In this document: positions 6,227-31,249 of the stretch, piece after piece
Position numbering within the stretch: position 1 is the stretch's first letter
Layout of the letters: each line of letters starts with the position of its first letter
Assembly: GCF_000250675.2 (NCBI RefSeq)
Contig: NC_018681.1
Span: 4,897,031 to 4,929,030, forward strand
Direction of reading: 5' to 3'
Source of the DNA: Nocardia brasiliensis ATCC 700358
GTDB lineage: Bacteria > Actinomycetota > Actinomycetes > Mycobacteriales > Mycobacteriaceae
DNA: 32,000 nucleotides
Position numbers and translations under genes: made by a program
Notes under the pieces: generated by a model
Told to the model about the DNA's origin: nothing
What the model saw: only the letters and a program-made list of their open reading frames with translations
Databases searched by the model: none

Positions 6227-6241
6227 CTCCGGGTCTCCTCC

Positions 6242-8544: not shown

Positions 8545-8546
8545 CG

Positions 8547-9992
8547 TTATTCGCTCGAATCACGAACCGGCAGACCGTATATCCGCTGCTCGAACTCGGC
8601 TCGATCGGCGGCCCGGAAGCGGCCTCGGTAGTCCAGACCGCGTTCCACCGAGACCCAGCGCACCAGCGAGTGCAGCGGACGCATCTCGTCGTGCACGAAC
8701 CCGGGGCGGGGCCTGCTCATCAAGCCCACCTCGGTGACGCGCGAGGCGCCGGCCAGGGTGAGTGCGCGCCCGAGCTGCTTGCCGCGGTGCCACGGATACA
8801 CGGCGACGGTCTGCGTGTCTCGGTGCACCGCCGCCACGGCGTCCGCCAGCCGCGCGACAGAATAGACGTAGGCGGTCCGGCCCAGCGGGTGTTCCAGTTC
8901 CGGTGTCTCCCCCGGCGGGACAGTCACCACCGTCCAGTCGGACCCGGCGCTCTGCCGGACCCGGTACCCGTCGAACCGGGCCTCCTGTCGCGCCCGGGTG
9001 ATGTGCGCCTGTGCGTCCACGGTCCGAAAACCGCACGGAAGCCGTTGCGCCACATGCTCGAGCCCGCGCACGAGACCGGCGGCGAAGACGTCGCCGTCGC
9101 CTTCCACAAAGATCCGCTGCGGACTGAAGCAGGCCTCCTGCTCATAGACGCTCAGGTCGTACGCCGCGCGCACCGCGACGTCCGCCCAGCCGCCGTCGTC
9201 GGCACCGATCAAGATGATGCTCTCTTTCGGGCCGAACTCCACCAGCTCGGTCCCGACCGGGATCCGCGGCTTGATCGCCGCGATCGAGGAGTGTTTTCCC
9301 CACGCGCACACCACATCCGAAGCGTCGATGAAATCCTGCTCCACCGGATCACCGCCGGGCCAATAGAGTACGGAGAGCGCGCGGGTGAGCGGATGCCAGG
9401 GATCGACGTCGGCGAAGGTGCGGGCGAAGGCGAGCGTCGAGACCAGATCGCGGCGCGGCAGTTTCGCGACGGTCACGTTCTTCGTGAGCAACCCGCGAAT
9501 CACCGTGAACAACCCGGCCAGCGGAACATTGCCGACCATCAAATGCAGTACGCGCCCTTTGGGCAACGCCCGCAGGAAGATCGACTGCTTGGGCAGCCAA
9601 TCATCGAGCAGCAGCGGATTGTCCAGGTCTGTCTCGACGATGTCATAGAGCTTGGCCCGAGCGCAGGCGCGCGCGATCCGCGTGTAGTCGTCCTCGATCA
9701 TCGTCTCGTGGTAGCCGGTGATCCGTGCCGCCAGCGCGACGGCGTCGCGGCGGCCGGGGTAGCCGGGATCGCCCCACAACCGGCCGACCCGCTCGAGGAA
9801 AACCGTGATCTCGTCCAGGTGCAGCTCGGCGAGCGCATCTCGTTGCGTCTTCAGCACGTCCCGGACCAGTTCGGCGGTCGGCCGGGGAATCGTGATCCGC
9901 CAACCCGATTCGTAGGTGACTACGAGCGGTTCGACCCCGCTGTCGGCCACCGTCTCGCCGTTCACGAGAATCGGCAACGCTACCTCGTGCAT
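8547..9992 (-). CDS. luxC: LuxC-family acyl-CoA / acyl-protein reductase (aldehyde-forming)
   Basis: The start is taken at ATG 9992 (MHEVALPILVNGE...) with GGGAG upstream. It overlaps the upstream gene's stop by 13 nt. LHLMVGNVPLAGLFTVIRGLLTKNVTVAKLP and YEQEACFSPQRIFV (candidate nucleophile Cys) are characteristic of the LuxC branch of the aldehyde dehydrogenase superfamily. Confidence 0.8.
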   Translation of the reverse strand: MHEVALPILVNGETVADSGVEPLVVTYESGWRITIPRPTAELVRDVLKTQRDALAELHLDEITVFLERVGRLWGDPGYPGRRDAVALAARITGYHETMIEDDYTRIARACARAKLYDIVETDLDNPLLLDDWLPKQSIFLRALPKGRVLHLMVGNVPLAGLFTVIRGLLTKNVTVAKLPRRDLVSTLAFARTFADVDPWHPLTRALSVLYWPGGDPVEQDFIDASDVVCAWGKHSSIAAIKPRIPVGTELVEFGPKESIILIGADDGGWADVAVRAAYDLSVYEQEACFSPQRIFVEGDGDVFAAGLVRGLEHVAQRLPCGFRTVDAQAHITRARQEARFDGYRVRQSAGSDWTVVTVPPGETPELEHPLGRTAYVYSVARLADAVAAVHRDTQTVAVYPWHRGKQLGRALTLAGASRVTEVGLMSRPRPGFVHDEMRPLHSLVRWVSVERGLDYRGRFRAADRAEFEQRIYGLPVRDSSE

Positions 9993-11278
9993 CCGGCACT
10001 CCCGGCCTGTTCGCTCGGCAGCAGCTCCAGCACACCGCCCGCGCGGAAGGTCTCCTGCACGACGAGCCGCACCCACTGGGCGTACCGAATCACGTGGCGT
10101 AGGTTGTCCACCGCGAAGCGGCGCTCGGGATCATGCGACAGCCGGACCACCCGGAAGTCACCCATCATCGGCGGCAGTGTGTGTTCGGCGCGGTCACGGT
10201 GGTAACTCACTTCGAACGCCGAACGGCCGCCGGTCGAGCACCCGACGGTCTGATGACCGCGGTAGTGGGTGTCCTCGTTGAAAAAGATCATGTTGTCGGC
10301 GGCCTTCTCGACCCATTCGCCGCGCAGGCAACCGTCGCCGAAATAGTTCACCACCGCTTTGCGCTTCAGCTTGATCATCCGGGCCCGCAATGTCGCACGC
10401 AGGCGCTGCTCCGACTCGTGCCCCAGTTGCTCGGCGAAGCGGGCCAGGGCCAGGCCCTCATCGATCACCGTATGCGTGAAGAACTGGTCGGACGCGTCCA
10501 GCTCGCCGGGGCGGTCGAGCAGCACCCCGCGCACGCAGGTGACCGTCACATGATCGACCGCGAGGGCGCGATCGCGCACCGCGCACCGCATCAGCGCCTC
10601 GACCAGCTCCTTGGATTGCCCACGGGCGGTGAGGCATTGCCTGGTGGCCGCGGGCAGCCAGCGCGCGGCCACGCGCGTGTCGGGCAGGCCGGGTGCGATT
10701 TCGGTCAGCCCCTCGACCACCTGGCCGGGCAGTTCGGTCCAACTCACCTGCGCGCGGGCGAGCAGACCCTCTGTGCGATGCCATTTCGCACCGTCGATCA
10801 CGGAATACCTGAAGTAGTCCCGTTCGACGTGTTCCCTGACCATCCGGGTGCGATCGGCGAGTTCCAGGAGGGGCAGGTGATCCAGTGTCCTCGGCTGGCC
10901 GATCGACAGCAGGTAACCGCCCAGCCGTTGCGCCAGCACCGCACGCACCGCACGCAGCGAGAATTCACCGTCGAGTTGTTCGAGACCGATTCCGGCGCGT
11001 CGCAGCACGGCCAGCCCGAGGACGAGTTCCGCGTCGGCCTCGGTCCACGTTCCGTACGGACGTGCCTCGACCACGGTCAGCGCGTCCCGGAATTCCTTTC
11101 GGCCGTGCCAGGTCCCGTCGAAACGCAGCCAGTGATGCCTGCTGAAGATCAACGTGGCGCCCGCGGCCCGGATCAGCTCCCGCACCGAGTCCGCGGCATC
11201 GTCTGCGGCACAACGGGACAACAGTCCGGTGACGTCATCCAGCGCCGACGTGCTCGTCGGTATGGTCTCGATCGACAC
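9980..11278 (-). CDS. Hypothetical protein, no family recognised (first gene of the minus-strand operon)
   Basis: The track ORF 9980..11290 starts at TTG. I prefer GTG 11278, which has GGAG 6 nt upstream. The long ORF has coding-like composition and is translationally coupled to the luxC-like gene. The C-terminal segment FFNEDTHYRGHQTVGCSTGG...YHRDRAEH is rich in potential metal ligands. Confidence 0.7.
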   Translation of the reverse strand: MSIETIPTSTSALDDVTGLLSRCAADDAADSVRELIRAAGATLIFSRHHWLRFDGTWHGRKEFRDALTVVEARPYGTWTEADAELVLGLAVLRRAGIGLEQLDGEFSLRAVRAVLAQRLGGYLLSIGQPRTLDHLPLLELADRTRMVREHVERDYFRYSVIDGAKWHRTEGLLARAQVSWTELPGQVVEGLTEIAPGLPDTRVAARWLPAATRQCLTARGQSKELVEALMRCAVRDRALAVDHVTVTCVRGVLLDRPGELDASDQFFTHTVIDEGLALARFAEQLGHESEQRLRATLRARMIKLKRKAVVNYFGDGCLRGEWVEKAADNMIFFNEDTHYRGHQTVGCSTGGRSAFEVSYHRDRAEHTLPPMMGDFRVVRLSHDPERRFAVDNLRHVIRYAQWVRLVVQETFRAGGVLELLPSEQAGSAGCTR

Positions 11279-11290
11279 GATCGGCTCCAA

Positions 11291-11573
11291 TCAGAGGTAC
11301 GCGGTGCGTACGGGAATTGCTGGGGAGCACTGCGCCGAAACTATCACCGAATTTTCACTGACGCGATAACCCGAAAGTCACATCGAGTATGTGACCGATG
11401 ACTCGGCGAATACCGCGCCGTCGTACGAATGACGTTACCCGGCGCGCGTTTTCGAATATCGAATCGCGGTAAGTGTGCCGAACGGAGCATTGACAGCGCC
11501 TGCGGAATTCCCGTTTGGTGGACAGGGAGCACGAACTGGCCGAGAAACTCTGGCACGAGGAGCCCTGGGAACA
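11291..11573. promoter_or_regulatory. Divergent promoter/operator region of the lux-like cluster
   Basis: A 283-bp non-coding gap between divergent operons, locally AT-richer. It contains the perfect palindrome GTCACAT-n5-ATGTGAC (11377-11395) and TTCGA-ata-TCGAA (11451-11463). Confidence 0.5.
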
Positions 11574-11795
11574 ATGCGAGTGTGGATCGAACGCGCGCTC
11601 TGCCAAGGTGCGGAGCTGTGCTGCGAACATGCCGCGGCGGTGTTCGCGACGGACGACGAATATGTGGCGTACGTGAAGGCGGACGTCGGCGCCGACTGCG
11701 CGCACAAGGCGCTGCTCGTGCCCGGCGAACACGAGGAACAGGTGCGCCGCGCCGAGGCAGAATGCCCGTCACGCTGCATCAACATCATCGACTGA
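11574..11795 (+). CDS. Small ferredoxin ([3Fe-4S]/[4Fe-4S] type)
   Basis: 73 aa from ATG 11574 (MRVWIERALCQGAELCC...ECPSRCINIID). The CxGxxxC...CP cluster-binding pattern matches actinomycete ferredoxins. The track ORF 11475.. is over-extended. Confidence 0.8.
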   Translation: MRVWIERALCQGAELCCEHAAAVFATDDEYVAYVKADVGADCAHKALLVPGEHEEQVRRAEAECPSRCINIID

Positions 11796-11819
11796 CCGGG
11801 CGCCGGCCGAGGACAGACC

Positions 11820-12953
11820 ATGACAACGCACGCCAAGGTCACCGTCATAGACTCCATTCGGGCGATCGATGACCTGATCCATCAGCGCGACGATGCTTTC
11901 ACGCTCGCCGGGGCCGAGCTCAATGAACTCCGCGACGAATTGATGCGCGCCGCGGTCCGCCACCATTGGCAGCACTGCGCGTCCTACCGGCGCTATGCCG
12001 AAGCCAACGAATGGTCGCTTTCCCGGCTGGACCTGCCCGGTTTCATCGAATCGTTGCCGCTGATACCGGCCTCGGTGTTCAAGCGTCACGACGTTTCGAG
12101 CTGTGCGCCCGAAAAGGTGGTGCAGGTCTGCACCAGCAGCGGTACCCGGGGTACGAAAAGCCGGATATATCGCGACGGAACCACCCTGGAACGTTTTGTC
12201 GGCAGCATCGATCAGGGCAGCCGGCTCGCGCTACCGAATCCCGACATCGAACGGCAGCTGTTCGTACTGGGGCCGGACACCGGCGAGGCCGGCGATCTCT
12301 GGTTCTCCTACGTACTGAGCATCGTGGATCTGCTGCATCCCACCCGATTCTTCGTCACCGCGGGCATTTTCCGGATCGACGAGGTGATCGACGCGTTGCT
12401 CGACGAGTCGGTCGAGCGGCCGGTGGTGATCGGACCACCGGTCCTGGTGCGGGATCTCGCAACAGCGCTGCGCGAACGCGGCATCGATCCCGGCCTCGGT
12501 GCGCGCAATGGTCTCGTCATCACCGCGGGCGGCTGGAAGCGCGCGAACGCGACGGCGATGTCCCGGCGGGACTTCGAGGAATTCGTCACGGCCGCTTTCG
12601 GTTTGGCCGGCGACGCGCCGATCCGCGACTGCTACAACGCGGTCGAGCTGAACACCGTGCTGTTCGAATGCCGGTTCCGGGCCAAACACGTGCCCGCATG
12701 GCTGCATACGAGTGCGCGGGATCCGGCGACAATGCGGCCGCTGCCGCCTGGCGAGGTGGGCGTGCTCGCGTTCTGCGACGCCTCCCCCACCAGCTATCCG
12801 GGATTCGTGGCGACCGATGATCTGGGCTCGGTGTCGCGCGAGGGAAGTTGCCCGTGCGGCAACGACTCCGCGGTGCTCACCGTGGTGCGCCGCATCGCGA
12901 CGGCCGAAACTCGCGGCTGCGCCCTACGACTCGACGCCGAGGTCATCCGATGA
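11820..12953 (+). CDS. luxE: LuxE-family acyl-protein synthetase (long-chain-fatty-acid--luciferin-component ligase-like)
   Basis: 377 aa starting at ATG 11820, with GAGGA upstream. It has the TSSGTRGTKS adenylation P-loop, WKR, and a C-terminal ...AETRGCALRLDAEVIR. The Cys (nt 12918-12920) lies 10 residues from the C-terminus, the position I recall for the acylated Cys of LuxE. Confidence 0.85.
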   Translation: MTTHAKVTVIDSIRAIDDLIHQRDDAFTLAGAELNELRDELMRAAVRHHWQHCASYRRYAEANEWSLSRLDLPGFIESLPLIPASVFKRHDVSSCAPEKVVQVCTSSGTRGTKSRIYRDGTTLERFVGSIDQGSRLALPNPDIERQLFVLGPDTGEAGDLWFSYVLSIVDLLHPTRFFVTAGIFRIDEVIDALLDESVERPVVIGPPVLVRDLATALRERGIDPGLGARNGLVITAGGWKRANATAMSRRDFEEFVTAAFGLAGDAPIRDCYNAVELNTVLFECRFRAKHVPAWLHTSARDPATMRPLPPGEVGVLAFCDASPTSYPGFVATDDLGSVSREGSCPCGNDSAVLTVVRRIATAETRGCALRLDAEVIR

Positions 12954-13957
12954 CGACTGCACCAGTAGGACAACGCCGTTCGACCACTCCGGTGACCGTC
13001 CGGTCGGAGCGGTTCGAACTGCCCACGCCCCGCGGCATGTTGCGTGGCCTGCGCCAATACCAGCCCGACAACCACGATCCGGTCGGCCGCGTCATCGTGG
13101 CGCCGCCGTTCGGCACGGTGATGCGGCGCGGCCGTGGCATCGCCCTCTACTTTCTCCTCAACGGGTTCGACGTCATTCGCTACGACCCCACCAATCATGT
13201 GGGCGAAAGCGACGGAACTATCCGGGAATTGACCCCCGATGCCCTCGCCGCGGATCTGGCGCTGGTGCACGACTGGGTCGCGACCTCCGGCCCGCGCCGC
13301 GGGCCCGCCGCCCTGTTCACCGCGAGTATCGCCTCGCGCATCGCATTCGCGACGGCCGCGCGGTCGGGTCGGCGTCCGGTCGCGATCGGCGCCATCTCCG
13401 CTGTGGTCGACATGCAGGCCACCATCGCGGCGGCCAACGACCAGGACTTCATCGGGCAGTGGCTGCGCGGCGAGCAGACCGATCCCGACCGCACCGCGCT
13501 CGTCCTCGACCACGAGGTGAAATGGCGGTTCGTGCAGCGGTTGGTCGAATTGGGCTGGCACACCACCGAGTCCACCCGCGTCGATATCCGATCGATCGGG
13601 TCTGTGCCGATTCTGGCGGTCCAGGGCAGCCGCGACTCCTGGGTCGATCTGCGCGCCGTGGCGGATGCCTTCCGCGACCACGCGTCGGCCGACATCGTCG
13701 TGCTGTCCGATGCCACGCACGAACTCAACACCGCGAGTGCCCGCACGGCGCTCGCCGAACTGGTTCGCTTCTTCCGGCCCGCGCCCGCGACCGGCGATCC
13801 CGTCCTCGCCCCGACCTTCGCGCACGTCGTCGCGCAGAACAAGGGCGAGCGACAGATCGACCGGTCGCAGCCGGACGGTTTCGCCGTGGAAGTCACCCAT
13901 TGCGCACCGTTCGACTACGACTTGGGCCCGGGTGCCTCTTCGGCCCCCACCACGTGA
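12950..13957 (+). CDS. luxD: LuxD-family acyltransferase / acyl-ACP thioesterase (alpha/beta hydrolase)
   Basis: The start ATG 12950 overlaps the luxE-like stop (ATGA). IVAPPFGTVMRRGRGIALYFLLNGFDVIRYDPTNHVGESDGTIRELT aligns with Vibrio LuxD LIASGFARRMDHFAGLAEYLSENGFHVFRYDSLHHVGLSSGSIDEFT. LFTASIASRIAF aligns with LIAASLSARVAY, the nucleophile Ser region. Confidence 0.85.
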   Translation: MTTAPVGQRRSTTPVTVRSERFELPTPRGMLRGLRQYQPDNHDPVGRVIVAPPFGTVMRRGRGIALYFLLNGFDVIRYDPTNHVGESDGTIRELTPDALAADLALVHDWVATSGPRRGPAALFTASIASRIAFATAARSGRRPVAIGAISAVVDMQATIAAANDQDFIGQWLRGEQTDPDRTALVLDHEVKWRFVQRLVELGWHTTESTRVDIRSIGSVPILAVQGSRDSWVDLRAVADAFRDHASADIVVLSDATHELNTASARTALAELVRFFRPAPATGDPVLAPTFAHVVAQNKGERQIDRSQPDGFAVEVTHCAPFDYDLGPGASSAPTT

Positions 13958-15345
13958 TCGGCCGCGCCGGTACCGTCGTGGGTTGCCGCGGCGCCGTTGT
14001 CCGACGTCGCCGCAGCATGATTCGACGCCGTGGCGAGCAGCGGCGGACGCGGCGTTCGCGGGAACGCGTAGTCCAGCCACATGCCGGCCAGCGAGGACGT
14101 CACAATGGAGAGCACCACGATGCTGGTGAAGAATTCCTCGTTGATGAGACCCGCGGACAAGGTGACGGTGGCCAGCACGATTCCCGGGCCACCACGTGCG
14201 TTCAGCGCGACGGCGAAATTCTTGGCGTGCCGGTTCGATTCGCCCACCGCGCGCGCGGCGGCCCAGATGCTGAGCCCCTTGACCGCGGTTGCCGTCAGCA
14301 AGAAGGCGGCGAAGAACACGAGGTCGAAATTGCGTGCCAGATCGAGTTGCATGCCCACCCCGGCGAAGTAGATCGGGATGAAGAACGCCAGCGAGAAGTC
14401 CTTGATCGTATCCCATGCGCCTGCGCCCGGCGTCGACTCTCCGTCTTGATTACTTTGCGGCGCAATGACATCGGAGGAAGCGATGCCGGCCAGCAGTGCG
14501 CCGAAGATGGCGTTGATCCCGAGGAATACACACGAAAGGACCAGCGCGAGTGCGAATACCAGCCGGAACGCGATCGGGTTCGCCTTCTCCATCAGATTCG
14601 CCTTGCTCGCGGCCAGCCGGTTGAACAACCACTTGCCGGCCAGCAGCAGCGCCGTGATGAAGACCAGGCTGACGATCACCTGATACGCCATCGCACCCGT
14701 ACCGTGTAGCTGCAGCAGTGAGCCGAGCCCGAACGTCTTCTGGTCGCCCTGGACCAGGCTGAACGTCACGGCGAGCGCCACATACAGCACGACGTCCTCG
14801 AGCAGCGCCACCGCCAGGACGACCCGGGCGAAGCTGGTGTTGAGCAACCCGAGGTCGAGCATTATTCGCGAAATGACCGGAATGCTGGTGACCGCGAAGG
14901 CGATTCCGAAGATGAGGGCGAAGGTGGCGTCGGTCCCGTGCGGGCCGGAGTAGTCGGCGTGGTCGAGCGCGAGGGCCACCCCGACCCCGAGCACCATCGG
15001 AATCACCAGCCCGGCCGCGGCCAGCGCCGCCACGGTGCGCTGCTTGCCCGGATTGCGATAGGTCATGACCTCTCGCCCGGCCAGGAACATCAGCAGCAGC
15101 AGTCCGAACTCATTGAGCATCTGGATTCCGGCGTGGACGACGCCGTCGGCGGGGAACAGTTGGCTCGCCACACCCGGCGCCACCTGCCCGAACACCGTGG
15201 GCCCGAGGAACAGTCCACCGAGGATCTCTCCGATCACCGGCGGCTGGCGCAGTTTCGCACAGATCTGCGCACCGAGATGGGCGGCGACGAGGATGATGAT
15301 CAGTGCGATGAACAGACTGGCGAAATCGCCACGGGACAGCGACAT
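13915..15345 (-). CDS. flH: Cation:proton antiporter (Na+/H+ exchanger family; FlH-like)
   Basis: The start is taken at ATG 15345 (MSLSRGDFASLFIALIIILVAAHLG...) with AAGGAGGG upstream. It is a polytopic membrane protein with QPPVIGEILGGLFLGP, typical of CPA antiporters. The 544-aa track ORF is over-extended. Confidence 0.9.
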   Translation of the reverse strand: MSLSRGDFASLFIALIIILVAAHLGAQICAKLRQPPVIGEILGGLFLGPTVFGQVAPGVASQLFPADGVVHAGIQMLNEFGLLLLMFLAGREVMTYRNPGKQRTVAALAAAGLVIPMVLGVGVALALDHADYSGPHGTDATFALIFGIAFAVTSIPVISRIMLDLGLLNTSFARVVLAVALLEDVVLYVALAVTFSLVQGDQKTFGLGSLLQLHGTGAMAYQVIVSLVFITALLLAGKWLFNRLAASKANLMEKANPIAFRLVFALALVLSCVFLGINAIFGALLAGIASSDVIAPQSNQDGESTPGAGAWDTIKDFSLAFFIPIYFAGVGMQLDLARNFDLVFFAAFLLTATAVKGLSIWAAARAVGESNRHAKNFAVALNARGGPGIVLATVTLSAGLINEEFFTSIVVLSIVTSSLAGMWLDYAFPRTPRPPLLATASNHAAATSDNGAAATHDGTGAADHVVGAEEAPGPKS

Positions 15346-15357
15346 TTGACCCTCCTT

Positions 15358-15380
15358 GCAGGCCGATGCCGGCGGCCTGC
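15358..15380 (-). promoter_or_regulatory. Intercistronic stem-loop abutting the antiporter RBS
   Basis: 8-bp GC stem gcaggccg / cggcctgc with a 7-nt loop. On the mRNA it ends 1-2 nt before AAGGAGGG-n4-AUG. No U-tract. Confidence 0.4.
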
Positions 15381-15415
15381 CGGAACTCGCCCGGCCGGCC
15401 GCCGACAGTGCTGGA

Positions 15416-16336
<921 letters not shown>

Positions 16337-16406
16337 TTACTGTGCGGTGAATTCCGCCACCTCCACGGGCGGAAATCTCGATGCCCGGTAGCCGCCCGGG
16401 CGGGCG

Positions 16407-17861
16407 TCAGTAGCGGTACTGCTCCGATTTGTACGGGCCTTCGATCGGAATATCGAGATAGTCCGACTGCCGCGGTGTCAATGTCGAGAGCCGGGCGCCT
16501 AGAGCGGGCAGATGCAAACGCGCGACCATTTCGTCCAGTCGCTTCGGCAGCGTGTACACGCCCACCGGGTATTGCGCCGACTTGGTGAACAGTTCGATCT
16601 GCGCGAGCACCTGATTCGCGAAACTGTTGCTCATGACGAACGACGGGTGGCCGGTGGCGTTACCGAGATTGAGCAGCCTGCCCTCCGACAGGACGAGCAC
16701 GGCATGACCGTCCGGGAAGACCCACTTGTCGACCTGTGGCTTGATGTTCTCCTTACGGACACCCGCGATCCGAGCCAGGCCCGCCATATCTATCTCATTG
16801 TCGAAGTGGCCGATATTGCCGACGATCGCCTGATGCTTCATGGCCGAGAGATGGCCGGCCGTGATCACGTCCACATTCCCGGTGGCGGTGACGAAGATGT
16901 CGGCGAACCCGACCACATCGTCGAGCGTGGCCACCTGGAAGCCGTCCATCACGGCCTGCAGGGCGCAGATCGGGTCGATCTCCACCACCACGACGCGGGC
17001 GCCCTGCCCGTGCAGCGCCTCTGCGCAACCCTTGCCCACGTCCCCGTAACCGCAGACGACAGCGACCTTTCCGCCGATCAGCACGTCCGTCCCCCGATTG
17101 ATGCCGTCTATCAGCGAGTGCCTGATGCCGTACCGGTTGTCGAACTTCGACTTGGTGACGGAATCGTTGACGTTGACCGCGGGGAACAGCAGCGCACCGC
17201 TGTTGGCCATCTGATAAAGCCGGTGGACACCTGTCGTGGTCTCCTCGGTGACACCGCGAATGCCCGCGGCCAAGTCGGTCCACTTGCGCGGGTGGGCAGC
17301 CAGCGAGGCCCGGAGCAACGCGTCGATCACCTCGTCGTCGGCCGACCGCTCGGCGCCGGGATCCGGTACGGCGCCCAACTTTTCGGCCTCTACCGCCCGA
17401 TGCACCAGCATCGTGGCGTCACCACCGTCGTCGAGCAGCATGTTCGGACCCGCGCCGTCGGGCCAATCGAGCATCTGCCCGGTGGCCCACCAGTACTCGT
17501 CGAGCGTTTCGCCTTTCCAGGCGAAGACCGGGACCCCCTGTGGGGCCTCGACGGTGCCGGACGGCCCGACGACGGTGGCGGCGGCGGCATGATCCTGCGT
17601 CGAGAGAATATTGCAGCTCGCCCAGCGCACCCGGGCGCCGAGCGCCGTCAGGGTTTCGATCAGCACGGCGGTCTGCACGGTCATGTGCAACGAACCGGAA
17701 ATACGGGCACCGGTCAGCGGTTTGTTGTTCGCATACTGTTCGCGCAGAGCCATGAGGCCCGGCATCTCGTGCTCGGCGAGTTCGATTTCCTGGCGCCCGA
17801 AATGGGCAAGTGATAGATCGGCGACCCGATAAGAGAATTCAGTTGTCACGGCCAACTCCAT
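16407..17861 (-). CDS. ahcY: Adenosylhomocysteinase (SAH hydrolase; FlI-like)
   Basis: The start is taken at ATG 17861 ([40 protein letters not shown]...). Classic SAHH motifs are present ([31 protein letters not shown]). Confidence 0.95.
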
Positions 17862-18091
17862 AAATGCTCGACCACTGTCCGTACTGACGATAGGGCGACG
17901 TACCGCCCAATACAACGCAGATCAGCGGGGTAAGCAGAAAATACGACGGCAAGCAATTGGTGACACACCGTAATGTGTAGCAATTTGCGCCGATCGGTAC
18001 ATCGCGGGCCGGATCGGACCGCCGATATCCTGAAGATCGTTGTCAGACAGTAAAGTCGCGCCGAAATGCGGCGAACTCCGGGACGGATACC
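17862..18091. promoter_or_regulatory. Divergent promoter region (ahcY-flA-flH operon vs phosphorylase-apt operon)
   Basis: A 230-bp non-coding gap between divergently transcribed genes, with an AT-richer stretch at 17935-17990. No specific element could be assigned. Confidence 0.45.
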
Positions 18092-18970
18092 ATGGTTGCA
18101 CCTGCGGCAGAAATCGAACTCGGCATCATCGGCGGCAGCGGGTTGTACGACCTGGAAACGCTCGCCGGTCGCCGCGAAGTCGCGCTCACCACACCCTACG
18201 GCGACCCGAGCGACAAGATCGGGGTCGGCCTGCTCGACGGGCGACCCATCGCCTTCCTCGCCCGGCACGGCCGCGGCCACCGCTACCTGCCGACCGAGGT
18301 GCCCGCCGCGGCGAATATCCACGCGCTCAAGCAACTCGGGGTCCAGCGCATCCTCAGCATCAGCGCCGTCGGCAGTCTCCGCGACGAGATCGAGCCGAGC
18401 CATCTGGTGGTGCCCGACCAGATCATCGACCTGACTCGGCACCGCCGGTCCACCTACTTCGGAGCCGGTGCCGTCGCACACGTACCGCTGGGCGACCCCT
18501 TCTGCCCGGTGCTGCGCGCCGGGTTGACCGACGTCGCCGCGTCGACCGGTGCGACCGTGCATCGGGCGGGCACTTACGTCTGCATCGAGGGGCCGCAGTT
18601 CTCCACCAGGGCTGAATCCGAACTCTACCGGGCCTGGAGCACAGACATCATCGGCATGACCGCGGCCACCGAGGCCAAACTCGCAAGAGAGGCCGGAATC
18701 TGTTTCGCCACAATGGCATTGGTCACCGACTACGACTGCTGGCGCACTGACGGGCCGTCCGTCACCGCGGATATGGTCGCGTCGGTGATGCGGGCCAATA
18801 TCGCAACGGCCAAGGACATCATCCGCAAGTTCGCCGCGTCCTCGGACGGCACGGCGCGCGACTGCGAGTGCGCCGATGCGATGCGGCACGCCGTCATGTC
18901 GGACCCCGCGGGCATACCCGGTGACACCGCGGACCGGCTCGCGCTCATCGCCGGAAAACTGCTGCGCTGA
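18092..18970 (+). CDS. flB: S-methyl-5'-thioadenosine phosphorylase-family purine nucleoside phosphorylase (FlB-type 5'-FDA phosphorylase by context)
   Basis: 292 aa starting at ATG 18092. GIIGGSGLYDL, FLARHGRGH, SAVGSL and TDYDCW are MTAP hallmarks. It lies divergent from the fluorinase operon. Confidence 0.9.
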   Translation: MVAPAAEIELGIIGGSGLYDLETLAGRREVALTTPYGDPSDKIGVGLLDGRPIAFLARHGRGHRYLPTEVPAAANIHALKQLGVQRILSISAVGSLRDEIEPSHLVVPDQIIDLTRHRRSTYFGAGAVAHVPLGDPFCPVLRAGLTDVAASTGATVHRAGTYVCIEGPQFSTRAESELYRAWSTDIIGMTAATEAKLAREAGICFATMALVTDYDCWRTDGPSVTADMVASVMRANIATAKDIIRKFAASSDGTARDCECADAMRHAVMSDPAGIPGDTADRLALIAGKLLR

Positions 18971-19005
18971 CACCCTCCCCGACTCTCGAGACCGCAGGAT
19001 TCGTC

Positions 19006-19581
19006 ATGTCCGACACCGTCGACTACTCGACCGCCCCAGACCGCACCGACGACCGGCTCGCCGCCGATGTCGCCGACCTCATCCGGGCCTATCCCGATTT
19101 CCCCTCCCCCGGTGTGCTTTTCCAAGACCTCTGCCCAGTCATCGCGACTCCCACCATGACCACCCGGATCGCCAAAGCGGCGATCCGGCATTTCGCCGGC
19201 GCTTTCGACATCGTCTTGGCGGTGGAAGCACGCGGCTTCGTGTTCGGCACCGCGGTGGCGCAGGAATCGGGCAGCCCGCTGGTGCTCGCCCGCAAATCGG
19301 GAAAGCTGCCGGGGCGGGTGTACAACGTCAGCTACGACCTCGAGTACGGCCGGGCAGCGCTCGAGTTGCAATGCGATGTCCTGCCCCCGTCCGCGCGCGT
19401 CCTGCTCGTCGACGACGTCCTGGCAACCGGTGGAACACTTTCCGCCGCAGCGGAATTGGTGGAACTCGCGCACGCTACCGTGACGGGCTACGCGGTGGTC
19501 GCCACGCTCACCGAGCTCGGCGGGCCCGCCCGGCTCGGGCGATACCAGGGCTACTGCACGCTGACCTTGCCGATCGACTGA
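19006..19581 (+). CDS. apt: Adenine phosphoribosyltransferase
   Basis: 191 aa starting at ATG 19006, with AGGA upstream. YPDFPSPGVLFQDL, EARGF and VLLVDDVLATGGT (the PRPP-binding motif) are present. Confidence 0.95.
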   Translation: MSDTVDYSTAPDRTDDRLAADVADLIRAYPDFPSPGVLFQDLCPVIATPTMTTRIAKAAIRHFAGAFDIVLAVEARGFVFGTAVAQESGSPLVLARKSGKLPGRVYNVSYDLEYGRAALELQCDVLPPSARVLLVDDVLATGGTLSAAAELVELAHATVTGYAVVATLTELGGPARLGRYQGYCTLTLPID

Positions 19582-20555
19582 CCCGACGGCGTGATCACCC
19601 GATCCTCGGTGACGATCGCGGTGACGAGATCAGCGGGTGTCACATCGAACGCCGGATTGCAGGCGGTGCTCGCCGCGGGAGCGATTCGCGCACCGCCCAA
19701 TTCGAGCACCTCCGTCGCGGCACGCTCTTCTATCGGCACCTCGGCACCGCTCGGACAGGTCAGATCGATCGTCGCCTCCGGCGCGGCCACGACGAACGGG
19801 ATCCCCACGCGCGCTGCGGCCAACGCGTGGCTCAGCGTGCCGACCTTGTTGACCACGTCACCGTTGGCCGCGATCCGATCCGCACCGACGACCACCGCGT
19901 CGACCCGGCCGTGCACGATCATCCCCGCAGCCGCACCGTCCACGATGACGGTGTGCGCGATCCCGGCCCGGCCGAGTTCCCACGCGGTGAGCCGGCTGCC
20001 CTGCAACAGCGGCCGGGTTTCACAGGCGTACACCAACTCCAGCTTGTTCGCCACATCCAGCGCGCCGATGACCGACAGCGCGGTACCGCATTCGACGCCG
20101 GCCAGCGCACCGGCGTTGCAATGCGTCAGAATCCGCCGGGCGCCGGCGAGCAGGTCGGTGCCGCGCGCGCCGATCGTTCGATTGGCGGTGATGTCGGCGT
20201 CTCGGACGGCCAGCGCCGCGGCCAGGATCGCGTTCGGACCGCCGTCCCGAACCGCGAGCACCTGTTCCACACCCCACGCGAGATTGACCGCGGTGGGTCG
20301 CGCCTCGGTCATGATCACGGCAGCCGCGTCGAGTGCTCGCTCGAGCGATTCGCCCCGTTCCACGGCCCGCAGCGCCGCGAGCGCCACACCGAGCGCGCCC
20401 GCCACACCGAGCGCCATCGCGCCGCGCACCGCGAGCCGGGCGATCTCGCCGGCGAGCTGCGCGGCCGTGGTCACCGTGACGACCACTTCTCGATGTGGTA
20501 GCAACGTTTGATCGAGAATGACTACTTTTCCGTCGACCCAGTCGATTGTCCGCAT
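19551..20555 (-). CDS. mtnA: S-methyl-5-thioribose-1-phosphate isomerase homologue (5-fluoro-5-deoxyribose-1-phosphate isomerase by context)
   Basis: The start is taken at ATG 20555 (MRTIDWVDGKVVILDQTLLPH...). It is MtnA/eIF-2B family, with THCNAGALA and VVVGADRIAANGDVVNKVGT motifs. Its 3' end overlaps apt by 31 nt. Confidence 0.9.
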   Translation of the reverse strand: MRTIDWVDGKVVILDQTLLPHREVVVTVTTAAQLAGEIARLAVRGAMALGVAGALGVALAALRAVERGESLERALDAAAVIMTEARPTAVNLAWGVEQVLAVRDGGPNAILAAALAVRDADITANRTIGARGTDLLAGARRILTHCNAGALAGVECGTALSVIGALDVANKLELVYACETRPLLQGSRLTAWELGRAGIAHTVIVDGAAAGMIVHGRVDAVVVGADRIAANGDVVNKVGTLSHALAAARVGIPFVVAAPEATIDLTCPSGAEVPIEERAATEVLELGGARIAPAASTACNPAFDVTPADLVTAIVTEDRVITPSGQSIGKVSVQ

Positions 20556-20752
20556 AGGATCACTTTCCGGCCGGGGTCGTTTTCCGTCAACAACGCGACC
20601 TCGGCCATAGCCGAACGGCCATGTCCCAGAATACTTTCGACGCACAGAGTAGACACGTTCGTCGTATTGCGCTGCCGCAGTGCGGATTATTAATGTCTAT
20701 CGTGAGAAACTGCCGAAACGCAGGGGCAGTGTCTCCCGCCGATCGGAGTGAA
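20556..20752. promoter_or_regulatory. Divergent promoter region (isomerase vs transaldolase)
   Basis: A 197-bp gap containing the most AT-rich stretch of the island (20640-20720, e.g. gcggattattaatgtctatcgtgag). Confidence 0.45.
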
Positions 20753-22600
20753 ATGACCGAGCTCAGCATCGATACGCCTCTGTCGCTTACCGCAATTCGG
20801 GATCTGGTGACCCGCGAGGAGGTGGACAACGAGCAGGTGTTGCATCTGACCGCCAATGAAACGGTGCTGTCCCCGTTCGCACAGAACGTGCTGTCCACCA
20901 AATTGGCGAACCGTTATCTGCTCGAACATCTCGATATGCGGCTGGACTCTCCGTCGCGCCTCAACAACTTCCTCTATCGCGGGCTCAACCGGGTGAACGC
21001 CATCGAGCAATCCGCGACCCAGGTGTGCCGCGAGCTCTTCGGCGCCGAATACACCGAATTCCGTTGCCTTTCCGGCTTGCACGCGATGCAGACGACCTTC
21101 GCCGCACTGTCCCAGCCCGGCGACAAGATCATGCGTATTTCCACGAAGGACGGCGGCCACTTCCTGACCGAGCTCATGTGCCGGTCGTTCGGCAGGCGGA
21201 GCACCACCTACGCGTTCCGCGACCTGTGCACCATCGACATCGAGCGGACGCGGGAGATATTCGAGCGTGAACGTCCGTCGCTGCTGTACATCGACGCCAT
21301 GAACTACCTCTTCCCGTTCCCGCTGCGGGAACTCAAACAGATATGCGGCGACGTCCCGCTGATCTTCGACGCCTCGCACACCCTCGGGTTGATCGCGGGC
21401 GGGCAGTTCCAGGATCCGCTGGCCGAGGGCGCCGACATCCTGCAGGCCAACACACACAAGACCTTCTTCGGCCCGCAGAAGGGACTCATCCTCGGAAAGA
21501 GCCGCAGCCTCATGGAGCGGATCACCTACACACTCTCGAACGGCATGGTGAGCAGCCAGCACACCGCTTCGACCCTCGCGCTGTTCATCGCCCTGCACGA
21601 AATGTATGAAGACGGGCGCGAATACGCGGCGCGGGTGATCGAAAATGCCAGGCATCTGGCGGGTTTGCTCAACGAGCGCGGGATCCCCGTGCTCGCCGCG
21701 GATCGCGGATTCACCCAGAACCACATGTTTTTCATCGACACCCGGCCGCTCGGCGCCGGCCCCATGCTGGCCAAGAAGCTGCTCGACGCGAACATCTCGG
21801 TGAACCGCTCGATCGCGTTCGAGCACATCGATACATTGCGGCTCGGCGTGCAGGAGATCACGCGGCGGGGATACAGCGGCGCCGATCTCGAACGGATCGC
21901 CGGCTGGATCGAACACCTGCTGCTCCGGGACGCGAACCCGGAATCGGTCGCGCGTGATGTCGCGACATTCGTTGTCGGCAGGCAGAATATCCGATACTGC
22001 GGTAAGAGCGCAGGTCCGCGCCGCGCACCTCGCGGCAAGCCGTCACCTGCGACCCCGGCTCGGCCGCGCTGGGTCAACATCAGCCTGACGAAAGCCGACA
22101 ATCGTTGTGCCCCAGAGACGGTCGAAGCCGTCCGCACGCTCGGTGCCGCCGCCGCGGTATTCGAGCACCAAACCGATTCGGCAGGCAACATCAGCGTCCG
22201 GACGAACGGTCACACCTTCGTTTCGGCGAGCGGCTCTTACCTCAAAGATCTGGCGTCGCACGATTTCGTCGAACTGGTCGACTTCGCGGACTGGACGCTC
22301 CGCTGCGAAGGCGCCGGACCGCCGTCGGCGGAGAGCTACATGCACTATCTGGTGCGAACATCGGTGGACGCCCGCTACATCGTGCACAACCACTACATCC
22401 CGGGTGACGAGATCGCGGACCTGGATGTGCTCGTCATCCCGCCCAAGGAGTACGGGAGCGTGCAGCTCGCGGAGGCCGTCGCGAAAGCGGCGCCACGCAG
22501 CCACATCATCTACATCCGGCGCCACGGACTGGTGTTCTGGAGCGATACGCTCGAGGAATGCACCGCCCTGATGGCCCAGGTTGCGAGCCGGCGGATCTGA
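20753..22600 (+). CDS. 4-fluorothreonine transaldolase-type fusion protein (N-terminal SHMT-like PLP domain + C-terminal class II aldolase/adducin-like domain)
   Basis: The start is taken at ATG 20753 with GGAG 5 nt upstream (the track starts at 20621; ATG 20693 is also possible). NTHKTFFGPQKG matches the SHMT THKTLRGPRGG PLP-lysine motif (Lys at nt 21458-21460). A Pro/Arg linker follows. The C-terminal GNISVR...SASG...PSAESYMHYL...YIVHNHYIP...IRRHGLVFW is a class II aldolase fold. This two-domain architecture is that of the S. cattleya and Streptomyces sp. MA37 fluorothreonine transaldolases. Confidence 0.85.
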   Translation: MTELSIDTPLSLTAIRDLVTREEVDNEQVLHLTANETVLSPFAQNVLSTKLANRYLLEHLDMRLDSPSRLNNFLYRGLNRVNAIEQSATQVCRELFGAEYTEFRCLSGLHAMQTTFAALSQPGDKIMRISTKDGGHFLTELMCRSFGRRSTTYAFRDLCTIDIERTREIFERERPSLLYIDAMNYLFPFPLRELKQICGDVPLIFDASHTLGLIAGGQFQDPLAEGADILQANTHKTFFGPQKGLILGKSRSLMERITYTLSNGMVSSQHTASTLALFIALHEMYEDGREYAARVIENARHLAGLLNERGIPVLAADRGFTQNHMFFIDTRPLGAGPMLAKKLLDANISVNRSIAFEHIDTLRLGVQEITRRGYSGADLERIAGWIEHLLLRDANPESVARDVATFVVGRQNIRYCGKSAGPRRAPRGKPSPATPARPRWVNISLTKADNRCAPETVEAVRTLGAAAAVFEHQTDSAGNISVRTNGHTFVSASGSYLKDLASHDFVELVDFADWTLRCEGAGPPSAESYMHYLVRTSVDARYIVHNHYIPGDEIADLDVLVIPPKEYGSVQLAEAVAKAAPRSHIIYIRRHGLVFWSDTLEECTALMAQVASRRI

Positions 22601-22607: not shown

Positions 22608-23183
22608 TTACCAGCCCGACACCGGATAGGTCATGACCAGCACGGCCTCGACATTGTCGGTCGTCGCCTCGTAGAAATGCGGCACGTCGGCGCCGAACAC
22701 CACGAAATCGCCTGCGGCAGCGTCGCAGGGCGTGTCGACGGCGCCGACCCGCAGGCCGCCCTTGGCCACGTGCAGATGCTCCACCGTGCCGACCGTGTGC
22801 GCCGGACTGTCGATCCGGTTGCCCGCCTTACGGATTCGAATCCGCCACACCTCGACGTACACGCCGGCGCCGACGCGCTGCAAAAGTTCCTGTTTGCTGT
22901 AGTCCGGCTCGGACGTGCCGGGCCGGAGCGTGGCCCTCGACGGTGCCGTCGCGACGATGAGATCGCCGAGCGGCAGCCGCAATGCGACCGCGATGGCGGA
23001 CAACGTGTCGATACGCGGATTGCCCGCACCCGATTCCAAAGTGGACAACGTTGCCTTACTGATCCCGGATTGGCGGGCGAGTTCCGCCGCCGACATGCCC
23101 CGAGCCTCCCGCATCCTGCGGATCTGTGCGCCGATGGCCGCGGCGGCACTGTCCAGCTTCGTGCTGTCTGCTAGATCGGACAT
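22608..23183 (-). CDS. XRE-family transcriptional regulator with C-terminal cupin domain
   Basis: The start is taken at ATG 23183 (MSDLADSTKL...). The HTH is MSAAELARQSGISKATLSTLESG. The C-terminal beta-rich region HTVGTVEHLHVAKG...FVVFGADVPHFYE is cupin-like. Confidence 0.85.
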   Translation of the reverse strand: MSDLADSTKLDSAAAAIGAQIRRMREARGMSAAELARQSGISKATLSTLESGAGNPRIDTLSAIAVALRLPLGDLIVATAPSRATLRPGTSEPDYSKQELLQRVGAGVYVEVWRIRIRKAGNRIDSPAHTVGTVEHLHVAKGGLRVGAVDTPCDAAAGDFVVFGADVPHFYEATTDNVEAVLVMTYPVSGW

Positions 23184-23241: not shown

Positions 23242-24192
23242 TTACGGTCCGGATCCGGTGGTGTCGGGCCCGGTCCGCAACGGATGACGGCTCGGTTCGG
23301 CGACGACGCGGGCGGGAACTTTCCGTGCCCCTTCGAGACTGCGGCCGACGATCGCGGAACCGACCACCAGCGCGCCGCCTATCCACTGCACCACGGTGAG
23401 CTGCTCACCGGCCACCAGCACCGCGAAAAGGGTCGAAAAGACCGGCTCTGTACAGAGAATCAAGCCGACCCGGGTGGAGCTCGTCCGGCGGGCGCCACGG
23501 AGCTGGGCGAAGAACGCGAACGACGTGCCGATCACGCCGAGATAGACGATCAGCAACCAATTCGATCCGCTCACCGCGCCGGCCAGGCGCCACATCGGCG
23601 CACCCGTCAGTACCGAGGTCGCCGTCGCCAGCAGCAGCACCACGACGAACTCGATCAGGGTGATATTCACCAGCGACTGATTCTGACCTTCGGAACTGCG
23701 GCCGAACAGGGTGATCTGCGTGGCCCTGATCATCGCCGCGGCCAGAATGATCAAATCTCCGCTCTGCGGATGGAATCCACCCTTCGACAACAGCAACAGA
23801 CCGCAGCCGGCAAGCGCGGTGACCGTCGCGAGATAGACCGGAAGCGGTTGTGCCCGGCGACTGAGCACACGCTCGAGGACCGGCACGAGCACCACGGAAA
23901 CGGTGATCAGAAAGCCGGAGTTGGCGGCCGAGGTATGCAGTACGCCAATTGTTTCCAAGATCAGAATGCCGTACAGCATGAACCCGAACGCGATGCCGTT
24001 GCGCACCTCGGACGAGGTGAGCTGAGGCAGCGTGCGTAATGCGAGCAGCGCGATGACCGGTATCGCCGCCGCGAAACGCAGCGCGAGAAAGCCGGCCGCG
24101 GGCACCGCGCTGCCTACCGTCTGCATAACGACGTAGCTGGAACCCCAGGTGATCGCCACCAGCAAGATGGACAGATCCGTCAGGGCCACCAT
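23242..24192 (-). CDS. DMT-superfamily transporter (EamA family; candidate amino-acid/4-fluorothreonine exporter)
   Basis: About 10 predicted TM segments in two EamA-like halves. The start is uncertain (ATG 24192 MVALTDLSILL..., or ATG 24225). Confidence 0.85.
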   Translation of the reverse strand: MVALTDLSILLVAITWGSSYVVMQTVGSAVPAAGFLALRFAAAIPVIALLALRTLPQLTSSEVRNGIAFGFMLYGILILETIGVLHTSAANSGFLITVSVVLVPVLERVLSRRAQPLPVYLATVTALAGCGLLLLSKGGFHPQSGDLIILAAAMIRATQITLFGRSSEGQNQSLVNITLIEFVVVLLLATATSVLTGAPMWRLAGAVSGSNWLLIVYLGVIGTSFAFFAQLRGARRTSSTRVGLILCTEPVFSTLFAVLVAGEQLTVVQWIGGALVVGSAIVGRSLEGARKVPARVVAEPSRHPLRTGPDTTGSGP

Positions 24193-24730
24193 CGACCCTG
24201 GTTGTGACGCGTCCCCACCCCGCATCGTGGTACACCGTTCCCTCGATCGCCAAAGGTTTGCCACCCTCGACTGCCGTACAGCATATTAGGCTGAATCGTA
24301 CAGTTTGTTACGCCCGGCGCTCTGCCCCCAATTCCGGTGTCAGCGGTAAGTTGTACTGCCTGCTGCGACCTCGTGCACCCTTGCGACTGTCCAGTCGCAT
24401 AGGTCACACTGACTATCGGACATGCAGCGCGGAATGTTCAGGTCACTCGGGCCGCTGCGATCATCGCTCGTCGGCGGACCAGATCATCATGGGAGTCACG
24501 GTGGTTTGCCAGATGAATGCTCGGCGGTCAGCCGAGGCCGCCTGGCAGCACGTCGGCCCCCATGCAACCCTCGAGCGATCCCATTCGCACGCCGACCCGC
24601 AGTCCACACTCGAACCCTGGATGTCCGAGTGCCGGGCCGGCGTTCACAGCACAGGCGCGCACGTTCGGCCTAGGGGTGCGCACCAGCCTCCCTAGTTTTG
24701 ATACACAGCACGAAAGCGGGGGCAGATTTG
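24193..24730. promoter_or_regulatory. Unusually long (~0.5 kb) divergent intergenic/regulatory region
   Basis: No convincing ORF. It contains the direct repeat CGTACAG (24275-24281 and 24297-24303, 22 bp apart), the hairpin tgcgact-gtcc-agtcgca (24382-24399), and AGGTCAC twice (24401-24407 and 24440-24446). Confidence 0.4.
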
Positions 24731-25405
24731 ATGGTTGCACCGGCAGGAATACGACTGGTAGTCGTCGATGAACATGTGTTGTATCGGCACGGAATAGTGG
24801 AGATCCTTTCCCACGAACACGATATGGAAGTCGTCGGGCAATGCGGTGAGCGCGATGTCGAGGCGACGCTCGAGCGGCACCGGCCGGATATCGCGATCAT
24901 CAGCATCAGCCAATACGAGCGGCGACCGGAACGTTGGATACGCAGCGTTCTGCTGAGCACGCCCAGCGCGGTCGCGGTGATCATCCTGGGCGACCGGGAC
25001 ACTCCGCGCGGCATCGGCGATCTGATCGCGGCGGGCGCGGGGGGATACGTGTGGAAGAACTCGACCCGGGAGGAGTTGATCAGCGCGGTACGCAAGATCT
25101 TCGAGAACCCCGAGCAGGTGGTTTTGTCGGTCACCCGAGGCATGCTGCAAGGCCTGGGCAGCGGGGACGGAGCCATACTCTCCACCCGGGAACGAGAGGT
25201 GCTGACTCTCGTCGCCGCGGGCCTGAAGAACTCGCAGATCGCCGACCGGCTGTATCTGGCCGAAGGTACCGTCAAACGGCATCTGACGAATATCTACGCC
25301 AAACTCTCGGCCTCCTCACGCGTCGAAGCGATAAAACAGGCAATCGCCCTGGACCTGCTTTCGGTCGAGGCGATACTCGAGCCCGATGCCTCCAGGCAGC
25401 GATGA
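24731..25405 (+). CDS. LuxR/NarL-family response regulator, atypical receiver (FlG-like regulator)
   Basis: The start is ATG 24731 (the track start 24698 is TTG). It has a REC domain plus the C-terminal HTH LSTREREVLTLVAAGLKNSQIADRLYLAEGTVKRHLTNIYAKL. The position aligned to the NarL phospho-acceptor Asp reads IAIISIS. Confidence 0.9.
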   Translation: MVAPAGIRLVVVDEHVLYRHGIVEILSHEHDMEVVGQCGERDVEATLERHRPDIAIISISQYERRPERWIRSVLLSTPSAVAVIILGDRDTPRGIGDLIAAGAGGYVWKNSTREELISAVRKIFENPEQVVLSVTRGMLQGLGSGDGAILSTREREVLTLVAAGLKNSQIADRLYLAEGTVKRHLTNIYAKLSASSRVEAIKQAIALDLLSVEAILEPDASRQR

Positions 25406-26155: not shown

Positions 26156-26671
26156 TTACGTCATCGCCTCGCCCATGGCCGCCTCGTACTGCGCGATCTT
26201 CTCGGTGCGCGGTTGGGCCAAGCGCACGTAGTCGCCGGTGCGCAACGCCATCGACCGATCGAGCCGGGCCGCGTTGAAATACAGCTCGGGGATGTCGAGT
26301 ACACCGGGGTCGACGATGAGTTCGAGATCGGGATGAAACGAGAAGGGCAGGATCGTGCCCGCCACGGAACCGGAAAGATTCTCGGCGATCTCGGGGGTGG
26401 CAAAGGAAACATAGGTGCCGTCGAAGAGCGCGCGCACCGCGGTGAGATCGACCTTTGCGTCACCCGGCACCACCGCCAAGACGTACCGCTTGGTCTTCTT
26501 ACCGATCTTCACCATCACCACCATGCATTTCGCCGCATCGTGCAAGTCGTTGCCGCGCATCGGACTGACCAGATCGGTACGGCCCTCCGGTTCATGATCG
26601 ATCAATCGATATTCGGCGGAACCTGCGTCGAGGAACTCGATGAGGCGCTGGTAGGGATCACTCTGGGTCAT
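26156..26671 (-). CDS. YbaK/ProX (INS-domain) aminoacyl-tRNA deacylase-family protein; candidate fluorothreonyl-tRNA deacylase (FthB-like) by context
   Basis: The start is taken at ATG 26671 (MTQSDPYQRLIEFLD...). AAKCMVVMVK (conserved Lys region) and SGSVAGTILPF (GxxxP substrate loop) are typical of the YbaK/ProX editing domain. Confidence 0.8.
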   Translation of the reverse strand: MTQSDPYQRLIEFLDAGSAEYRLIDHEPEGRTDLVSPMRGNDLHDAAKCMVVMVKIGKKTKRYVLAVVPGDAKVDLTAVRALFDGTYVSFATPEIAENLSGSVAGTILPFSFHPDLELIVDPGVLDIPELYFNAARLDRSMALRTGDYVRLAQPRTEKIAQYEAAMGEAMT

Positions 26672-31196: not shown

Positions 31197-31249
31197 ATCA
31201 GGCTCCAATCGGTATCGCGCGATGGCGAAAGGCTCGACGTCCCAGCGGC

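Follow-up and report, generated by a model that had tools for sequence, protein, structure and literature searches.

A stretch of 32,000 nucleotides from Nocardia brasiliensis ATCC 700358 (contig NC_018681.1, positions 4,897,031 to 4,929,030 of the forward strand; hereafter the window) very probably holds, at about 13.9-26.7 kb, the nob fluorometabolite cluster, an island that is genetically oriented to 4-fluorothreonine (4-FT) and silent in culture. An exact-sequence look-up found six of its proteins, NobA, NobM, NobB, NobE, NobI and NobC, to be residue-for-residue identical to N. brasiliensis ATCC 700358 deposits, which identifies the region as the nob cluster (GenBank KF963271) described in 2014 by Wang, Deng and Qu (PMC3999930), and the gene sizes in the stretch agree with Table 1 of that paper. 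In a scan with one genome per species, fluorinase matches at 99% and 97% identity came from two N. brasiliensis genomes. The cluster itself is a rediscovery, in the literature since 2014, and adds nothing by itself. Indeed, every element of the original prediction, which had been made from the sequence of this stretch, was already in print between 2014 and 2022 (PMC3999930, PMC9173684).

The only lead beyond the literature concerns the cleavage of 5-fluoro-5-deoxyribulose 1-phosphate (5-FDRulP). Next to the isomerase gene of fluorinase loci, a stand-alone aldolase resembling DrdA and the C-terminal aldolase-like domain (A domain) of the fluorothreonine transaldolase (FTase) show a complementary distribution. 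The gene for the enzyme that makes fluoroacetaldehyde from 5-FDRulP is known from no fluorometabolite producer, and its identity would help to complete biofluorination pathways in heterologous hosts.

Gene content of the nob island

Since the stretch is about 66% G+C, genes were called by third-position GC (GC3) bias; they were annotated with Pfam and NCBIfam. The original prediction had described eight genes at 13915-22600 that cover most of a 4-FT pathway. All the functions that it listed are encoded there, with profile scores far above chance and, for the fluorinase and the transaldolase, above the curated equivalog cutoffs, although the genes number seven. Beyond the transaldolase lie five further genes (NobF, NobC, NobG, a Usp protein and a tRNA-editing-domain protein), and the island reaches 26.7 kb. 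Its features are as follows, with protein lengths in amino acids (aa).

13915-15345, minus strand: NobH, FlH-like CPA2 cation:proton antiporter, 476 aa (PF00999, 144 bits; size as in PMC3999930 Table 1)
15416-16318, minus strand: NobA, fluorinase (5'-fluoro-5'-deoxyadenosine synthase), 300 aa (TIGR04507, 614 bits, cutoff 400; exact match to W8JNL4 (FLA_NOCB7) and AHK61118.1)
16407-17915, minus strand: NobI, S-adenosylhomocysteine hydrolase, FlI homologue (TIGR00936, 625 bits; exact match to AHK61117.1)
18092-18970, plus strand: NobB, 5'-fluoro-5'-deoxyadenosine phosphorylase of the FlB/MTAP family (TIGR01694, 316 bits, cutoff 275; exact match to AHK61116.1)
19006-19581, plus strand: NobE, adenine phosphoribosyltransferase, apt (NF002636, 183 bits, cutoff 125; exact match to AHK61115.1)
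19551-20555, minus strand: NobD, MtnA-type isomerase of 5-fluoro-5-deoxyribose 1-phosphate (5-FDRP), 334 aa (TIGR00512, 355 bits, and PF01008)
20621-22600, plus strand: NobM, predicted 4-fluorothreonine transaldolase, a fusion of serine hydroxymethyltransferase (SHMT) and class II aldolase domains (TIGR04506, 1215 bits, cutoff 650; exact match to AHK61113.1)
22608-23183, minus strand: NobF, FlF-like regulator with HTH_3 and cupin domains, 191 aa in PMC3999930 (Pfam HTH_3, Cupin_2)
23242-24264, minus strand: NobC, EamA/DMT transporter, FthC orthologue (PF00892; exact match to AHK61110.1)
24734-25405, plus strand: NobG, FlG-like response regulator of LuxR/GerE type (PF00196 and a weak Response_reg match; listed in PMC3999930)
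26156-26671, minus strand: predicted FthB orthologue, a free-standing YbaK/INS-type aminoacyl-tRNA editing protein, 171 aa (PF04073, 68 bits)

The fluorinase NobA carries the fluorinase-specific loop of about 23 residues (residues 94-116) together with Asp16, Thr80, Phe156 and Ser158, and these positions are invariant among 13 fluorinases. The gene for the antiporter starts with an ATG at 15345 behind an AAGGAGG ribosome-binding site, and with this start the antiporter does not overlap the fluorinase. For comparison, 50 fluorinase loci were assembled, 25 genomic and 25 metagenomic, and labelled with L-numbers; L028 covers 9 kb past the right end of the window. The antiporter adjoins the fluorinase in 20 of the 25 genomic loci. 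The gene for NobD is divergent from that of the transaldolase, and the 334-aa gene call in L028 fits the size of NobD in PMC3999930.

In NobM, the SHMT domain (PF00464) occupies residues 59-430 and the Aldolase_II domain (PF00596) residues 515-654; the lysine that holds pyridoxal phosphate (PLP) is Lys280, in an NTHK motif. The protein is 61.6% identical to the FTase of Streptomyces cattleya, and transaldolase activity on fluoroacetaldehyde and L-threonine has been demonstrated for the orthologues from S. cattleya and Streptomyces sp. MA37. Judged by domain architecture and orthology, NobM is a 4-fluorothreonine transaldolase. The 2014 GenBank and the RefSeq annotations place some start codons differently and give 300 versus 287 aa for the fluorinase, 659 versus 615 aa for the transaldolase (RefSeq start at 20753), 340 versus 316 aa for NobC and 502 versus 484 aa for NobI.

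To the right of the transaldolase, the editing protein at 26156-26671 is 73% identical to the product of the gene that adjoins the FTase gene on the S. cattleya megaplasmid pSCATT, and NobC is 69% identical to that of the second pSCATT gene upstream of FTase, with FthB between them. FthB is a fluorothreonyl-tRNA deacylase and FthC a 4-FT exporter, and their roles and conservation are documented (PMC7408626, PMC9173684); by homology, the 26156-26671 protein would be an FthB-type fluorothreonyl-tRNA deacylase. A NobF-type regulator accompanies the transaldolase in seven loci, and 15 genomic loci have a NobG homologue close to the fluorinase. Throughout 1-32000, no match attains the gathering score of an Rfam family, and no fluoride or S-adenosylmethionine (SAM) riboswitch was found near the fluorine genes.

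Proposed pathway and its product

In the proposed pathway, NobA would join fluoride and SAM to give 5'-fluoro-5'-deoxyadenosine (5'-FDA), a reaction that the recombinant enzyme carries out in vitro (PMC3999930), and the inhibitor S-adenosylhomocysteine would be cleared by NobI. Phosphorolysis by NobB would convert 5'-FDA to 5-FDRP and adenine, the latter to be salvaged by NobE, and NobD would isomerise 5-FDRP to 5-FDRulP. An aldolase without a separate gene in the island would then release fluoroacetaldehyde, and NobM would make 4-FT by transferring it to the glycyl unit of threonine. Finally, the FthC-like NobC would export 4-FT, the FthB-like deacylase would hydrolyse mis-charged fluorothreonyl-tRNA, and the FlF-like and FlG-like regulators would control the set, with the FlH-like antiporter as a putative ion transporter. 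What has been demonstrated is the published activity of NobA and the identities of the genes, through curated models and orthology to characterised S. cattleya enzymes; the other pathway steps, what the pathway finally makes and where the aldolase activity comes from are what we infer.

It had been claimed that a stand-alone fuculose-phosphate-type aldolase, an aldehyde dehydrogenase (ALDH) for fluoroacetate and the fluoroacetyl-CoA thioesterase FlK are all absent from the window, and six-frame searches of the whole window uphold this. When a stand-alone aldolase and the C-terminal domain of NobM were used as queries, the only class II aldolase match in the window was the transaldolase domain itself (22064-22597). 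A canonical ALDH query, checked against PDB 1NZX, found none in the window, and tblastn with S. cattleya FlK (identical to PDB 3KV7) found none in the window (best E = 4.4) or in L028. Furthermore, the called genes leave no gap in the window big enough for an ALDH or an aldolase. With the same FlK query, clear homologues of 49-51% identity were recovered from three other fluorinase loci, L007, L024 and L052, which indicates that the search method works. These loci, from Microbispora rosea, a Streptosporangiaceae metagenome-assembled genome and a metagenome contig, carry the FlK homologue at 8683-9048 (PF22636, 102 bits), 1317-1721 and 2-304, respectively, and have no transaldolase within reach. 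Wang et al. likewise found no 5-FDRulP aldolase, and their genome analysis gave no homologue of fuculose aldolase or of flK (PMC3999930). The absence of these three functions counts for a 4-FT-oriented nob island.

A LuxC-type acyl-CoA reductase at 8547-10076 is a distant relative in the ALDH clan and belongs to an unrelated neighbouring gene set. An open reading frame of 137 codons at 11355-11768, of a size to be considered for FlK, was rejected: it has no Pfam or NCBIfam match, its translation is arginine-rich and of low complexity, and it lies inside a 529-bp divergent intergenic region.

The further suggestion, that the pathway is dedicated to 4-FT or another product derived from fluoroacetaldehyde rather than to fluoroacetate, is partly supported. 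In its favor are the orthologues of FthB and FthC in the island and the pattern across the 50 loci. FTase, FthB and FthC occur together in nine genomic and five metagenomic loci, and the FthB-type editing protein is confined to transaldolase-bearing loci, plus L020, whose contig breaks off early. All the loci with FlK lack the transaldolase, and FlK never shares a locus with the FTase/FthB/FthC module. A 4-FT orientation is therefore plausible from the gene content and has some comparative support, short of being established.

Several facts weigh against this reading. In cultures of N. brasiliensis with 2 mM NaF, only fluoride was seen by 19F nuclear magnetic resonance (19F-NMR), with zero organofluorine signal, so that function in vivo is unproven (PMC3999930). 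At a remote site, the genome encodes NobJ, an aldehyde dehydrogenase with 78% identity to the fluoroacetaldehyde dehydrogenase of S. cattleya, that could divert fluoroacetaldehyde to fluoroacetate (PMC3999930). Because NobJ exists and no product has been observed, exclusive dedication to 4-FT is not proven. The aldolase step is also without an assigned gene. As for an aldolase or flK just outside the window, neither these nor an ALDH occurs in the 9 kb past its right end (L028), which again favors a 4-FT orientation; on the left, inspection of the flank reached about 1 kb only.

Wang et al. proposed both 4-FT and fluoroacetate as products (PMC3999930). Fluoroacetaldehyde, cleaved from 5-FDRulP by a housekeeping aldolase encoded elsewhere, would be split between NobM and NobJ. 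Such a dual-product pathway is a serious possibility, albeit one that we hold to be somewhat improbable. The resemblance of NobJ to the S. cattleya dehydrogenase speaks for it, as do two N. brasiliensis aldolases that are 62% identical to their S. cattleya counterparts (PMC3999930), and both compounds are made by S. cattleya and by Streptomyces sp. MA37. Moreover, an S. cattleya flFT knockout keeps making fluoroacetate, which implies that an aldolase outside the transaldolase exists in that organism. However, no fluoroacetate was detected by 19F-NMR (PMC3999930), FlK and the transaldolase module keep apart throughout the 50 loci, and, with no FlK homologue in the window or the published genome, fluoroacetate would arise without known self-protection.

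The lone fluoride signal could also mean that only a remnant, silent or in decay, is left in this pathogen and no longer yields any fluorometabolite. This is quite unlikely, considering that the open reading frames of all the cluster genes are intact and show normal GC3 codon bias, that three divergent N. brasiliensis lineages retain the whole gene set at 88-99% protein identity, and that recombinant NobA is active (PMC3999930); silence in the laboratory is common among biosynthetic clusters. An intact, 4-FT-oriented nob island remains the preferred reading.

The 5-FDRulP aldolase

The lack of an assigned aldolase is not peculiar to this island, as the gene has not been identified in S. cattleya either (PMC3999930). 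Comparison of the loci points to two concrete candidates, a DrdA-like aldolase of Actinoallomurus whose gene adjoins that of the isomerase and the aldolase-like domain that is fused to every fluorothreonine transaldolase.

In the Actinoallomurus loci L006 and L014, the isomerase is present and the transaldolase absent, and a stand-alone class II aldolase of 213 aa divergently adjoins MtnA:

L014, 14515-15156, minus strand: stand-alone DrdA-like class II aldolase
L006, 14503-15141, minus strand: stand-alone DrdA-like class II aldolase

Among PDB entries, it matches DrdA best (6BTD/6BTG, E = 3e-40), a 5-deoxyribulose-1-phosphate aldolase that catalyses the non-fluorinated analogue of 5-FDRulP cleavage. 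The Actinoallomurus enzyme is, on this resemblance, a candidate 5-FDRulP aldolase, and no mention of a DrdA-like aldolase beside MtnA in fluorinase loci was found in the searchable literature. In the loci that combine isomerase and transaldolase, six-frame searches found no class II aldolase besides the transaldolase domain. The complementary distribution of the two beside MtnA suggests that the A domain might supply the aldolase step.

According to this idea, the class-II-aldolase-like domain of NobM would cleave 5-FDRulP to dihydroxyacetone phosphate and fluoroacetaldehyde and hand the aldehyde to the PLP domain unreleased. If true, NobM would be a bifunctional aldolase-transaldolase and the island a complete 4-FT pathway, self-sufficient for this product. 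We consider it unlikely. The residues are suggestive: His589, His591, His635 and Glu571 of NobM align with FucA His92, His94, His155 and Glu73 (the zinc triad and catalytic glutamate), and Asn523, Ser537-Gly538 and Ser569 align with Asn29, Thr43-Gly44 and Ser71 of E. coli FucA, which we take to be its phosphate-binding pocket. Among 13 transaldolases, with domain identities as low as 34%, the metal ligands, the glutamate and the Asn, Gly and Ser of the pocket do not vary. Published work is consistent with this, in that the MA37 FTase binds zinc 1:1, mutation of these His and Asn residues lowers its activity, and its modelled fold resembles DrdA; the similarity of the A-domain fold to DrdA and MtnB has already been reported, in the FTase study. 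The genomic context agrees as well, since MtnA directly adjoins the transaldolase gene in four lineages, the MtnA loci without transaldolase (L006 and L014) encode the DrdA-like aldolase instead, and the N. brasiliensis genome offers no fuculose aldolase homologue.

Other observations argue that the A domain does not act in this way. Class II aldolases complete their aldehyde site with a loop after the HxH motif and with the C-terminal tail, and both are missing from the A domain of NobM. A segment of 16 residues (VDELPAIHYMVALFDG in the stand-alone L014 aldolase), which includes the 'PAIHYM' loop, and the last ~45 C-terminal residues of the stand-alone enzyme are absent from all transaldolase A domains. 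The tyrosine of this loop is presumably equivalent to FucA Tyr113. The fluoroacetate still produced by the S. cattleya flFT knockout means that the domain is not the sole aldolase there, and in vitro reconstitution of the pathway reportedly employed a separate aldolase. The role preferred for the domain in the FTase study is instead the dehydration of fluoroacetaldehyde hydrate, and the complementary pattern rests on a single lineage with the stand-alone enzyme. No report of an assay of 5-FDRulP (ketose 1-phosphate) cleavage by a transaldolase A domain was found in the searchable literature.

Candidate ALDH or aldolase families from other loci were discarded after inspection by eye, as fam57, fam43, fam44 and fam37 resemble pyruvate kinase, a glycosyl hydrolase, a TetR regulator and a terpene synthase, respectively. 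A different arrangement is seen in Amycolatopsis sp. H20-H5 (L012, 1-20870), a hybrid cluster in which the transaldolase, FthB and FthC are joined by a YmdB-like phosphoesterase and a dihydroxy-acid dehydratase of fdr/Sal type. It also holds a methyltransferase, a PfkB kinase and an HpcH/HpaI aldolase, and MtnA is not found nearby. Such a cluster could reach fluoroacetaldehyde by another route, in which the HpcH aldolase would cleave a 2-keto-3-deoxy acid.

Neighbouring genes and related clusters

Directly left of the fluorine island, a separate set at 2449-13957 encodes a short-chain dehydrogenase/reductase (SDR), a halogenase-like protein, a luciferase-like monooxygenase, a threonine-synthase-like PLP enzyme, an octopine-dehydrogenase-like protein, LuxC, a 436-aa protein without family, LuxE and a LuxD-like acyltransferase. 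Two features at this end of the window are:

2127-2369, minus strand: CsbD
3417-5138, minus strand: flavin-dependent-halogenase-like protein (GxGxxG and WxWxIP motifs; weak CmlS and Trp_halogenase matches)

Over 5141-13957, the set shows 87-95% conservation in the two further N. brasiliensis lineages, whose loci stop short of the SDR and the halogenase-like gene. As a part of the fluorine pathway this set was rejected, because only in N. brasiliensis does it lie with the fluorinase; the other 23 genomic loci and the 25 metagenomic ones all lack it. To the right of the island, 29085-32000 of the window and 4077-12112 of L028 encode six consecutive proteins without a Pfam family (75, 828, 416, 179, 444 and 703 aa), with two BTAD-domain regulators ahead of them and a cell-wall hydrolase after them.

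Among the 50 loci, no gene family beyond those in the window is common to the transaldolase-bearing ones. Two of the loci are unusual. In Streptoverticillium reticulum J-35 (L022, ~12336-12846), the A domain of the transaldolase is split over two frames, by a frameshift in a pseudogene or by an assembly error. The metagenome contig Ga0209810_1000218 (L048, 10001-18134) carries a minimal, divergent island with fluorinase, FthB, a protein of ~680 aa that has a P-loop motif and no family, transaldolase and MtnA all in the same direction, followed by a large serine recombinase. Homologues of FlB, FlH and FlI were not detected near this island, which may be a mobile unit.

The closest relative of the island is its own published annotation. 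The 2014 nob entry (KF963271) covers the same sequence, but ends at nobG, short of the FthB-type deacylase at 26156-26671; the role of FthB was described only in 2017. Compared with S. cattleya, the island has homologues of flA, flB, flF, flG, flH and flI, of the isomerase and transaldolase genes, and of fthB and fthC, with identities from 39% to 81% (PMC3999930), and 62-73% for FTase, FthB and FthC in this analysis. In S. cattleya these genes are spread over at least three loci, namely the chromosomal fl locus, the chromosomal isomerase and FTase-fthB-fthC on the megaplasmid. The predicted contrast, that isomerase and transaldolase lie apart from flA there and are consolidated here, is borne out, and the clustering of both with the fluorinase, unlike in S. 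cattleya, had been stated in PMC3999930. Moreover, S. cattleya has flK, which the nob island lacks, and the nob island has an extra apt gene.

Clusters of the fdr/Sal type share flA, flB, flH and flI with nob. Their fdr-type genes (YmdB-like phosphoesterase, ILVD/EDD-SDR fusion and cyclase) are absent from the window and present in L004, L005, L009-L012, L016-L018, L024 and L025. In the survey of Pardo et al. 2022 (PMC9173684), flB, flG, flH and flI were conserved, flIso and flFT occurred in most actinomycete clusters, and fthB and fthC lay near flFT; in some clusters, fdr-type genes were found instead. The consolidated flA-flFT-fthB-fthC clusters of Amycolatopsis, Paractinoplanes, Streptomyces iconiensis and S. 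morookaense (PMC9173684) have the same core set as nob. They differ from it in gene order and orientation; some add MetK, a PfkB kinase or DUF190, and some have no isomerase nearby. In 9 of the 25 genomic loci, the fluorinase has this core set within 10 kb, a pattern of conservation that matches the one published in PMC9173684.

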